64,000 nucleotides of DNA. Source: SAR324 cluster bacterium. GTDB lineage: Bacteria > SAR324 > NAC60-12. Where the stretch lies: positions 5,890 to 69,889 of the forward strand of contig JADGAT010000012.1 of NCBI GenBank assembly GCA_015231885.1, given 5' to 3'. A program made the position numbers and the translations under genes. Below are positions 32,324 through 34,893 of the stretch, piece by piece (the first letter of the stretch is position 1; each line of letters opens with the position of its first letter). A model generated the notes under the pieces. That model was given only the letters and a program-made list of their open reading frames with translations. It did not search any database and had not been told where the DNA came from.

Positions 32324-33430
32324 TCAAGGCTGGTAGGTTTCTTTTAGAATCTTATTGATTAAAACATCATGAAACCGGTCGGGTTCTTCATAGGGAACCA
32401 GATGGGCTGATTTTTCAAAGGGGATCAGTTCCTTGTGGGGCGCTTTCAGTTTCTCGAGATATTCCTTCACTAACACAAACGCGGTTTGATAATCCCGTCT
32501 ACCTTGTAAAATGTAAATGGGAATTTTCAATTCAGAAATCTCATTCATCACATTGAAATCCAACATTGGATCATATAAAAGCTTGACGGAAAATTCTTCT
32601 CCATCGAAATATCCCAATTTATCGAGAAAAGAATATTCTCTAAAAAATACCAGAGGCTTGCCAATGAGGTTATTGAAATCCTCAGGATTGTATGCGGCTC
32701 CTCCAAACTCTCTGACCCATCTTCGTTGTTGGAGCATTGCCATGGGACCATCTTTGTATCGTCCATTGATAGGAGCCTCCAGACCCTCTAACTCCTTGAT
32801 GGCTTCCTGATTCCCGGATTCTTTTGCGGTTTTTAAAACAAATTGGTAACTGAGAGTTTCACTTTTTTTGTGATCGGTGACCTGCCCAATCCCTATATAG
32901 GCATAGTAGTCCTCAGGATACAGGTCAACTGTGCGGATGCCCAAATAGGATCCCCAGGAGTGTCCCAGGAGATAAATTTTGTTTTGCTGAAATCGTCTTT
33001 TCAGATACTGAGTCAGTTCATGGGTATCGGAAATTAATTGTTCAATGGTCATCGTCTCTTTGGAAATACCCGGAGAGAAAGACCTTCCTGCCCCTCTCTG
33101 ATCCCAGTTGACGACAATAAAATGCTTTTCCAATTCCTTGTTGTGATAGACAAAGTGGGGCCCCTGTGGAGTTCCCGGGCCACCATGAAGCATGAGCAGG
33201 ACAGGATTTTTAACATTCCTTCCCCTCATTAAAACAAACTGTTTCAAATTTCCTAATTCTACATTTTCTATTGCAGCGACGCTTCCCTGAATTTCTCTGC
33301 CTGTGTCATCTTCAATCCGTGGAGTGGTTCCAGGACTGATCATGATCATGGCGAATAGTAAAATGGCCGCCAGTCCACCCAAACTGATGAGAATCCAGAT
33401 TACAAAATTTATACTTTTTTTCATTTGCAT
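32324..33430 (-). CDS. Membrane-anchored alpha/beta-hydrolase (S33 / proline-iminopeptidase-like)
   Basis: Preferred start is Met15/Met17 (MQMKKSINFVIWILISLGG). That start lies 4 nt after the upstream stop and avoids the overlap implied by the ORF-track start at 33472. N-terminal TM. HGGPG oxyanion motif. GHSWGS nucleophile elbow. Confidence 0.75.
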   Translation of the reverse strand: MQMKKSINFVIWILISLGGLAAILLFAMIMISPGTTPRIEDDTGREIQGSVAAIENVELGNLKQFVLMRGRNVKNPVLLMLHGGPGTPQGPHFVYHNKELEKHFIVVNWDQRGAGRSFSPGISKETMTIEQLISDTHELTQYLKRRFQQNKIYLLGHSWGSYLGIRTVDLYPEDYYAYIGIGQVTDHKKSETLSYQFVLKTAKESGNQEAIKELEGLEAPINGRYKDGPMAMLQQRRWVREFGGAAYNPEDFNNLIGKPLVFFREYSFLDKLGYFDGEEFSVKLLYDPMLDFNVMNEISELKIPIYILQGRRDYQTAFVLVKEYLEKLKAPHKELIPFEKSAHLVPYEEPDRFHDVLINKILKETYQP

Positions 33431-33434
33431 CTTC

Positions 33435-34058
33435 TTAAATGAAAACTTCTTTCGCAACTTTTCCAATGACATTGGTCACCATGGCGTCTGTAACACCACC
33501 CACGATTCCTCCTGCGATGGGGACCGCTCTCACTAAACCTATTCCTCCTTTCTCTCCAAATTTTGTCACCAATCGAAACCCCACAGCTTTATTGACTTCT
33601 TTAAAGACTGCGAGAGGGGTTTTTTTTATCATTTGTTGGGTGAATTTGACCCCGACCTGAATGCCGAAATCGATGAACAAATCTTTGATCGCATTTCCAC
33701 AAAGGCAGGCAAAAATCAAAGTTTTCACCTTCTCATCTTTAACATCATGCTCTGCCATGATCGCAATGGCGGCGATCATTCGAATTTGTATAAATAGAAT
33801 GCATGCCGTATTGGCAGGAATAACTACAGGAAGAAGTAAAAGTCCAGAAACCCCCCCGACGAATCCATTTGCAGCTGTTTTTGCATTTTGCCATCGAATA
33901 AAAGAATTAACTCGCGATTCTAGCGTTCCTCCTTCTTTGATATGTTTTTGAGCCAGGTCTTCAGCAGAATCCAAAAGTGGCACTCCAGGATCCAACGCCT
34001 TTTCATAGGCCCACTCTAAAGTATTATTAATTTTAATTTCCAGTTTTTCTTTGTTCAT
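33435..34058 (-). CDS. EcsC-like glycine-rich protein, distantly related to the four DUF697-like paralogs
   Basis: 207 aa. ATG at 34058. GFVGGVSGLLLLPVVIPANTACILFIQIRMIAAIAIM...VPIAGGIVGGVTDAMVTNVIGK. The EcsC-family assignment is from memory. The layout (G-rich, IP.P, QxRMI, conserved acidic run) echoes the DUF697-like domains. Confidence 0.55.
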   Translation of the reverse strand: MNKEKLEIKINNTLEWAYEKALDPGVPLLDSAEDLAQKHIKEGGTLESRVNSFIRWQNAKTAANGFVGGVSGLLLLPVVIPANTACILFIQIRMIAAIAIMAEHDVKDEKVKTLIFACLCGNAIKDLFIDFGIQVGVKFTQQMIKKTPLAVFKEVNKAVGFRLVTKFGEKGGIGLVRAVPIAGGIVGGVTDAMVTNVIGKVAKEVFI

Positions 34059-34095
34059 ACATGCGTTTACTTGACCCGCCAGTTAGGGTCAATTT

Positions 34096-34893
34096 TTATA
34101 ATTCAAGGGTGTCCTGGACATTTTCCCAGTCAAAACCCTGGGAAAGCAGGTTATCTTTCATCTGGATCAAAAGGGATTGGAGGCGTTTTGAAATATAATT
34201 CCTGTTTCTTCCAAGAACTATAGAGATCTGTTTGATCGAATGGCCACTAAAAAATTTCATTTTTAACATCAACTGATCGTCCTCTTCCAATTCCTTAATT
34301 AATCCTTCAAGCGTGGATTTGATTTTTTCGGCAGCCGCTTTTTTAATAGCTGCCGTAATTACCGATTCCGGAGTTGTTTCTTCTGCAAAATCTTGAACTT
34401 CATCGTGTGATGTAATATGCAGCTTCGGTGTTCGCTTCAAATGAGCGATCATTTTTTCCCATTTTTCTCGACTTAGCTGTAAATTGTGATTGATTGTTAA
34501 AATATGGTAGGCTTCCTCGGCAGTATACCTTTCTTTATGCACCAATTCTTCAAACTTAACAGCTACCTCTCCCAGTTTCTCCGCATTTTTAGAAGGGCGC
34601 CAGCGCCCGTTTATGCTGCGGAACTTGTCAATAAAAAGACGACTGACGACGGTGTATAAATAAGTTTGAAACGAAGACCGGCCATCATAGGCGCGAAGGA
34701 TAGCATAATTTTTGTCGACTAACCTAAAATGAATATGAGAAATAAATTCCTCAGCTTCCTGATGAAAAACCCTGTGACGTGCACAAGTGCTCATGATCAC
34801 TTTTTGCAGGTCTTCAAAATATTTTTCAAAAAGGTCTGACGGTTGATTCAACGGCTGATTGATTTTTCGTACCTGATTTTTGGGAATGCTCAT
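34096..34893 (-). CDS. ECF-type sigma-70 family factor with a long sigma2-sigma4 linker
   Basis: Region 2 FQTYLYTVVSRLFIDKFR. Region 4 HTH DQLMLKMKFFSGHSIKQISIVLGRNRNYISKRLQSL. 265 aa. Transcribed divergently from the anti-sigma gene. Confidence 0.75.
   Translation of the reverse strand: MSIPKNQVRKINQPLNQPSDLFEKYFEDLQKVIMSTCARHRVFHQEAEEFISHIHFRLVDKNYAILRAYDGRSSFQTYLYTVVSRLFIDKFRSINGRWRPSKNAEKLGEVAVKFEELVHKERYTAEEAYHILTINHNLQLSREKWEKMIAHLKRTPKLHITSHDEVQDFAEETTPESVITAAIKKAAAEKIKSTLEGLIKELEEDDQLMLKMKFFSGHSIKQISIVLGRNRNYISKRLQSLLIQMKDNLLSQGFDWENVQDTLEL

Follow-up and report, generated by a model that had tools for sequence, protein, structure and literature searches.

A 64-kb contig stretch from the metagenome-assembled genome (MAG) of a SAR324 cluster bacterium, hereafter the window, within which all positions are numbered, carries a polyketide synthase/nonribosomal peptide synthetase (PKS/NRPS) cluster in two megasynthase blocks. 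Between the blocks lie three minus-strand genes, which encode a sigma-70-family sigma factor (34096-34893), an EcsC-family protein (33435-34058) and an S33-like alpha/beta serine hydrolase (32324-33424). The question that this locus raises is whether a sigma factor and two such proteins form a single transcription unit and what, if anything, that unit has to do with the cluster around it. A sequence-only reading had described the trio as a tightly coupled operon in which the EcsC-like protein might be a remote paralog of four DUF697-like proteins and the hydrolase a candidate for releasing the assembled chain. We give an even chance to the account developed here, according to which the trio is a lineage-specific, sigma-led transcription unit within a variable island between the megasynthase blocks. 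Such an operon is ordinary, and its genes all come from known families; what is new is how they are combined, together with the architecture of the putative anti-sigma that accompanies them.

All three ORFs were located where they had been claimed and are real genes, in the order sigma, EcsC, hydrolase. The gap between the sigma and EcsC genes measured 37 nt (34059-34095) instead of the 38 nt reported earlier. The longest ORF for the hydrolase (32324-33472) encodes 382 amino acids and includes alternative ATG codons at 33472 and 33430. The sequence-only reading had placed the start at the latter codon, Met15, at a distance of 4 nt from the EcsC gene; that distance was correct but the start was not, and the conserved start is Met17 (33424, 'MKK'), which yields a protein of 366 aa and leaves a gap of 10 nt. 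Met17 is the start common to the NCBI 366-aa model, all 31 aligned homologues and an orthologue on a marine metagenome contig (L010), and an AAGAAG Shine-Dalgarno-like box lies 6 nt upstream of it. No terminator-like site was found on the minus strand in either the sigma/EcsC or the EcsC/hydrolase gap, and sigma-70-like promoter matches were at chance level (9 observed vs. 7.1 +/- 2.6 expected in shuffles). On L010, the end of a sigma gene is followed after 46 nt by an EcsC gene (73% identity) and after a further 10 nt by a hydrolase gene (64%). Taken together, the short gaps on one strand, the lack of a terminator-like site, the chance-level promoter matches and the recurrence on L010, a comparative finding and the strongest argument, suggest that the sigma, EcsC and hydrolase genes are likely co-transcribed, and the tight coupling proposed earlier is plausible. 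On two other contigs (L008 and L009), sigma (61-62%) and EcsC (74%) genes lie 156 nt apart, and no hydrolase start was found within the 97 nt that follow EcsC on either. A search of 31500-36500 against Rfam found no RNA element. Recent transfer of the trio, which we also considered, is unsupported, since its G+C content and its G+C content at third codon positions (GC3) lie within the range of the neighbouring small genes and are not outliers.

The sigma factor is an ECF-like (extracytoplasmic function) protein of 265 aa with a long linker between regions 2 and 4, both of which are present. It exceeded the cutoffs of TIGR02937 (56 bits vs. 42.9) and PF07638 (25.3 vs. 21.1), and its PF04542 and PF08281 scores were slightly under cut-off. 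Residues 19-239 (220 residues) align with positions 20-173 of a 185-position ECF model, with a long insert. Regions 2 and 4 are what it shares with the sigma factors of known pairs with zinc anti-sigma (ZAS) proteins, such as SigL-RslA, SigE-ChrR and SigR-RsrA, but its length exceeds that of typical ECF factors by approximately 70 aa, and it can also be aligned over its full length with FliA/WhiG, a match that is weak and sub-threshold (39 bits vs. 189.6). The family comprises 2238 representatives at E<=1e-3. When genome_contigs and JGI metagenome_contigs were scanned with the single sequence or with an alignment, no match to the sigma factor emerged, and a comparison with the PDB was likewise negative. 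Homologues show 61-67% identity on L008-L010, and the nearest relative outside that group, with 40% identity, is encoded by 'Deltaproteobacteria bacterium TL4' (L020). There, within 5.3 kb (6001-11274), the sigma gene is followed by genes for a DUF697 protein (66% to that of window positions 437-958), an SPFH protein (45% to 12916-13980) and an ATP-binding cassette (ABC) protein (47% to 9667-11292). This neighbourhood indicates that the link between the sigma family and the DUF697 superfamily recurs, and by gene content the flanking genes of the window look like a dispersed version of the same sigma-DUF697-SPFH-ABC set.

We next turn to the gene divergent to that of the sigma factor. Located at 35115-35870 on the plus strand, 18 nt upstream of the FAAL-KR-ACP gene, it encodes a protein in which a ZAS-like N-terminus is fused to a DUF697 domain (PF05128, 43 bits). 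The translation contains an H30-x3-C34-x2-C37 motif (35202-35225, plus strand) with C5 upstream, at a ChrR-like spacing. All four residues are invariant in P0242 (61% identity), which was the only other full-length homologue and the only other ZAS-DUF697 fusion found in a word-indexed protein search. The N-terminus of P0242 was matched by RseA (E 4.7e-4) and RsrA (E 4.9e-3), both below cut-off. In the AlphaFold2 (AF2) model of the window protein (pLDDT 81.5), the N-terminal part folds into helices at residues 8-15, 22-33 and 35-50. Its top-probability Foldseek matches were the zinc anti-sigmas RslA and ChrR (probability 0.41-0.87, with E about 2, which is non-significant), and the match to RslA reached a probability of 0.87 and a TM-score of 0.61 over 57 residues. 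The protein resembles ZAS anti-sigmas in its N-terminal H-x3-C-x2-C motif with an upstream Cys, in the adjacency of its gene to a sigma gene and, tentatively, in a modelled fold like that of an anti-sigma domain. It differs from them in that a DUF697 C-terminus replaces the single transmembrane (TM) segment plus sensor domain, or the cupin, and in that its gene is divergent from the sigma gene instead of being co-transcribed with it. We consider it somewhat more probable than the opposite that this candidate is the cognate anti-sigma of the window sigma factor.

The DUF697 domain also connects this protein to the second gene of the trio. Four ORFs in the window match PF05128, namely 437-958 (minus strand), 1282-1773 (plus), 14912-15736 (plus) and 35115-35870 (plus), which confirms the four DUF697-like paralogs noted before. 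The EcsC-like ORF, of 207 aa, scored 32.7 bits against PF12787, above the gathering threshold of 30.4, and all 38 of its aligned relatives match the same family. When a profile of 38 EcsC-family members was compared by hhalign with a profile of 36 DUF697 proteins that included the four window paralogs, the two aligned over 117 columns with a probability of 93.1%, an E-value of 3.2e-7 and a score of 51.9. Controls with reversed profiles and with 20 column-shuffled profiles gave probabilities of at most 3.9% and scores of at most 24. The aligned elements are a Gly-rich helix, a Pro-x-Pro turn, a Q-x-(R/K)-M-(I/L) helix and a later K-x-x-P-x-x-G ... T-x-x-x-G stretch. Among the 38 EcsC-family members, nine weakly matched PF05128 (best E 0.036) and no other second family recurred. 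In addition, the window DUF697 ORF at 1282-1773 directly matched one alphaproteobacterial EcsC-family gene at BLAST level, and one EcsC-family protein is labelled 'DUF697 family' by JGI. The profile match with its controls, the weak PF05128 hits and the BLAST-level match together bear out the relationship that had been suspected between the EcsC-like ORF and the DUF697 domains, and at profile level it holds that the EcsC family and DUF697 share a core and belong to one superfamily.

Within this superfamily, the EcsC-like ORF is not the fifth DUF697 paralog that had been suggested. Its identity to stand-alone EcsC-family proteins from Vibrio, Bacillus, Paenibacillus and Klebsiella plasmids is 48-56%, which marks it as an ordinary PF12787 protein from a sister family and no diverged copy of a window DUF697 gene. 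Like DUF697/YcjF-type proteins (PF05128), it is modelled with a helical hairpin at the proline turn, but it carries an insertion of about 40 residues and falls under the Pfam DUF697 threshold, with no PF05128 match of its own at E<=10. Its AF2 model is all-helical (pLDDT 69), the insertion being of low confidence (residues 124-177), and no solved structure or fold match was found for it. It exceeds the Pfam gathering threshold of the family that includes Bacillus subtilis EcsC (ecsABC, PF12787), but it differs from that protein in being one of a stand-alone subgroup of short proteins (~207 aa) found across plasmids and prophages. Its gene is flanked by the sigma and hydrolase genes, with neither ecsA nor ecsB beside it, and the window contains a single ABC gene, at a distance of 22 kb. 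A literature search yielded no functional information on DUF697 or EcsC, and the Ecs papers cited here do not mention EcsC. In a Prevotella MAG (L046, 9291-10630), an EcsC-family gene is directly preceded by a DUF697-like ORF.

A further feature shared by the two megasynthase blocks is a promoter-like 27-mer, AGGCAAAA-N8-TGTCCGTATAA, which occurs on the plus strand at 35024-35050, 64 nt upstream of the ZAS-DUF697/FAAL block, and at 15873-15899, 55 nt upstream of megasynthase block 1 (15955). The motif has exactly 2 matches in the 64 kb, and none of 100 shuffles gave 2. A shared-k-mer search of the other intergenic regions of the window revealed no further copy. The 27-mer was absent as an exact match from loci L001-L017 and, at up to 3 mismatches, from L020 and from the sister clusters L001 and L002 of two other SAR324 genomes, both of which lack the sigma gene. 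We entertain, as a possibility that we doubt, that the twin elements are putative promoters read by the window sigma factor; they may instead be an ordinary sigma-70 promoter or a regulator site.

Based on these findings, the locus could operate as follows. The sigma factor would be held by the divergently encoded 35115-35870 protein, whose ZAS-like N-terminus is joined to a DUF697 C-terminus from the superfamily of the EcsC-like protein. Once released, it would transcribe its own operon and thereby supply two envelope proteins, as is usual in ECF regulons, and it might also drive the twin 27-nt elements before both megasynthase blocks. The hydrolase would act as an envelope enzyme, separate from thioester release on the assembly line. 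A bolder version, which we regard as rather unlikely, treats the DUF697/EcsC superfamily as a membrane-associated module that serves a sigma/anti-sigma switch as its sensor or partner. In such a switch, the ZAS-like-DUF697 fusion would be the anti-sigma, the EcsC-like protein would engage its DUF697 domain and the released sigma factor would fire the twin promoters. A thematic parallel is offered by Bacillus, in which EcsAB has been linked to anti-sigma cleavage via RasP (PMC7478892), and this parallel to a sigma-linked EcsC-like gene is by analogy. If the switch were real, it would provide the first functional handle on DUF697, EcsC and PDC-S29, and also on the reason for which ecsC travels with EcsAB, which is needed for anti-sigma cleavage in Bacillus.

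Several observations weigh against the account of a sigma-led unit tied to the cluster. The 27-mer fits an ordinary sigma-70 promoter at 10 of 12 positions (35023-35051), the best such match, and its correlation with the presence of the sigma gene is based on three loci. Besides the non-significant E-value of the fold matches, the N-terminus of the candidate anti-sigma matched no zf-HC2 or anti-sigma hidden Markov model (HMM) in Pfam or NCBIfam, even at E<=10. None of 32 EcsC-family loci from other phyla had a window-type sigma or hydrolase gene within 10 kb. Finally, two related SAR324 clusters retain EcsC but have no sigma gene, and in one of them an opposite-strand radical SAM (rSAM) gene separates EcsC from the hydrolase.

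These two clusters are those of L001 and L002, which keep both megasynthase blocks with different genes between them. In L001, the space between the blocks holds EcsC (60%), the opposite-strand rSAM/B12 gene and a hydrolase gene (68%), and both the sigma gene and the DUF697 gene are absent. In L002, it holds genes for a Y1 transposase, Uma2, EcsC (62%), PDDEXK_2 and a NACHT-LRR protein together with extra NRPS/rSAM genes, and the sigma and hydrolase genes are absent. The differing fillings show that the space between the blocks is a variable island, of which, across the three SAR324 clusters, EcsC is the sole constant gene and the sigma factor a gene specific to the window lineage. The absence of the sigma gene from L001 and L002, together with the split between EcsC and hydrolase in L001, indicates that the trio as a unit is dispensable for the cluster. 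Co-regulation of the hydrolase with the sigma factor, as had been proposed, is therefore plausible in the window genome only and does not extend to the two sister clusters, which have no sigma gene. The region 8023-14738 of L002 looks, by its content, like a mobile or defence island, and its Uma2 endonuclease matches PADLOC PDC-S03. No paper found in the SAR324 literature addresses this cluster in its title or abstract.

The chief rival to the sigma-led unit is that the EcsC-like gene, perhaps with the whole unit, is mobile or defence cargo unrelated to the metabolite. EcsC would then be a promiscuous single-gene passenger in an insertion hotspot between the blocks, and the sigma factor would drive an accessory function, possibly one in anti-phage defence or envelope stress. 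The EcsC-like ORF matches the PADLOC PDC-S29 HMM over essentially its whole length (E 2.1e-73, 244.5 bits; residues 6-207 to positions 13-213 of 220), as do the L001 and L002 copies, and the family is carried by 207 plasmids, 29 IMG/VR viral contigs, two Listeria phage records and a Vibrio integrase/AlpA island. On the 2131-bp E. coli plasmid NZ_CP116985.1, an EcsC-family gene occupies about 585 bp. The company that the gene keeps in L002 (Y1 transposase, Uma2 with its PDC-S03 match, PDDEXK_2, NACHT-LRR) and the different island content of all three SAR324 clusters agree with such a role. On the other side, EcsC occupies one and the same place in the three SAR324 clusters, diverged as these are, with 60-62% identity, which makes it look vertical and less like a recent insertion, and the GC and GC3 of the trio are unremarkable. 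PDC systems are themselves 'guilt-by-embedding' predictions for genes embedded in BREX, DISARM or restriction-modification (RM) loci (bioRxiv 10.1101/2024.01.29.577857), and PDC-S29 is unmentioned in the supplements searched. The window gene shares with PDC-S29 the full-length HMM match and a family found on mobile elements, but no BREX, DISARM or RM genes lie nearby; it sits instead downstream of a sigma factor and inside a biosynthetic cluster. We therefore regard the passenger explanation as unlikely but as one that deserves to be taken seriously. A more limited objection holds that the three genes are neighbours transcribed separately from an internal promoter in the 3' end of the sigma gene or at the start of EcsC. 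Minus-strand sigma-70-like matches do occur at 34246-34217 and 34057-34030, the corresponding gap in L008 is as long as 156 nt, EcsC-family genes look monocistronic elsewhere, and the sigma/EcsC gap contains a 7-bp hairpin (34071-34092, minus strand, -10.4 kcal/mol). However, promoter-like matches are no commoner than in shuffles, the 10-nt gap between EcsC and hydrolase is kept in L010, and the hairpin, which we rejected as a terminator, is not significant (z = -1.67) and has its T-run only on the plus-strand side, with no U-tract on the coding strand. Separate transcription is thus improbable.

The remaining rival takes up the proposal of the sequence-only reading and holds that the hydrolase acts on the cluster product, whether as a chain-release or tailoring enzyme or, beyond that proposal, in maturation (for example, by cleaving a pro-form in the periplasm). 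Its starting point stands, as no PF00975 thioesterase domain was found in any window megasynthase, which bears out the claim that the blocks lack a cis thioesterase. The GHSWGS nucleophile elbow (32948-32965, minus strand, read from the sequence) and the N-terminal TM segment described earlier are also both present. By Met15 numbering, G156-H157-S158-W159-G160, the HGGPG motif (H82-G86), Ser158 and His343 are invariant and Asp313 is at least 90% conserved, which indicates that the catalytic triad and HGGPG are intact. A 68% orthologue lies beside the sister cluster L001, convergent with the same C-domain end, and the hydrolase gene is coupled to the sigma operon in both the window and L010. 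What argues against the proposal is mainly location. The signal-anchor segment (33338-33394, minus strand; Kyte-Doolittle mean 2.73) is preceded by two lysines and followed by a net acidic stretch (charges of +2 and -2 in the N-side and C-side flanks, respectively), which by the positive-inside rule predicts an N-in/C-out anchor and an extracytoplasmic catalytic domain. All 32 aligned homologues have the segment, and two of them look lipoprotein-like, with a lipobox-like FTCAS or CTCAS. Release requires carrier proteins, which are cytoplasmic, and a catalytic domain with the predicted topology would have no access to their thioesters, which makes the hydrolase a poor candidate for chain release. 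Furthermore, the hydrolase matches Hydrolase_4, Abhydrolase_1 and Abhydrolase_6 only, with no match to PF00975, and it is absent from the sister cluster L002. Its nearest homologue outside the cluster-linked copies (64%) has TetR, Rieske-oxygenase, NmrA and GST genes for neighbours, an unrelated catabolic setting, and further homologues adjoin riboflavin or chorismate genes. Better candidates for chain release are the condensation (C) domains, which are terminal in all three NRPS proteins, or a stand-alone type II thioesterase (2958-3734, minus strand; PF00975, 139 bits). The assignment of the hydrolase as the chain-release enzyme is consequently not supported, and a role on the cluster product in any form is one that we think quite improbable; an extracytoplasmic maturation or resistance role is possible, and no positive support for it was found.

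The hydrolase can be compared with two groups of known enzymes. Its best PDB relatives are the S33 proline iminopeptidases 3wmr and 1mtz (E 1e-10 to 1e-8), and it shares with S33 prolyl aminopeptidases, among them tricorn-interacting factor F1 (1mtz), the alpha/beta fold, the HGGPG motif, the GxSxG elbow and the Ser-Asp-His triad. Those enzymes are cytosolic and have no N-terminal anchor or signal, in contrast to the window hydrolase, which also scores far below the NCBIfam family cut-offs (TIGR01250, 71.1 bits vs. 167.65; TIGR01249, 41.1 vs. 259.75). It is like type II thioesterases and trans-acting release hydrolases in being a serine alpha/beta-hydrolase in a cluster without a cis thioesterase, and unlike them in matching no PF00975, in its predicted extracytoplasmic placement and in being missing from one sister cluster. 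The type II thioesterase at 2958-3734 and an exported beta-lactamase-fold protein (4272-5606, plus strand; N-terminal TM at aa 12-30) are further candidates that might carry out editing, release or maturation.

For cluster mining, these results remove a tempting and probably wrong assignment, in which an exported S33 hydrolase would stand in for the missing thioesterase. They also bring forward a sigma factor and an unusually built anti-sigma as a candidate pair linked to the pathway, from a marine lineage that is uncultured, with a shared promoter-like element before both halves of the cluster. In addition, the EcsC family, DUF697 and PDC-S29 are joined in one superfamily with a repeated genomic link to one sigma-factor family.

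The megasynthase genes and their surroundings show several other features. In the NRPS gene at 26636-32254, the adenylation (A) domain is interrupted by a Radical_SAM domain (aa 436-597) and a B12-binding domain (aa 776-887). Interruptions of this kind are unusual in A domains; the architecture is also found in a sister SAR324 cluster (L002, 20303 onward), and stand-alone rSAM/B12 genes occur nearby in both sister loci (e.g., L001 4997-6883). Directly upstream of megasynthase block 1, a ParA/MinD-like ATPase gene (14154-14891, plus strand) precedes the DUF697 gene at 14912-15736 by 20 nt, and this pair adjoins the SPFH/Band-7 gene (12916-13980, minus strand), with which it may form a membrane-organising set. 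In a 954-aa protein encoded at 5771-8635 (plus strand), a TLC ATP/ADP-transporter-like region is accompanied by numerous HEAT repeats. As listed, the KSIII-like (51204-52259) and sulfotransferase (52132-53148) ORFs on the plus strand have 128 nt in common; since the domain of the sulfotransferase starts at aa 101, the true start of its ORF probably lies further downstream.

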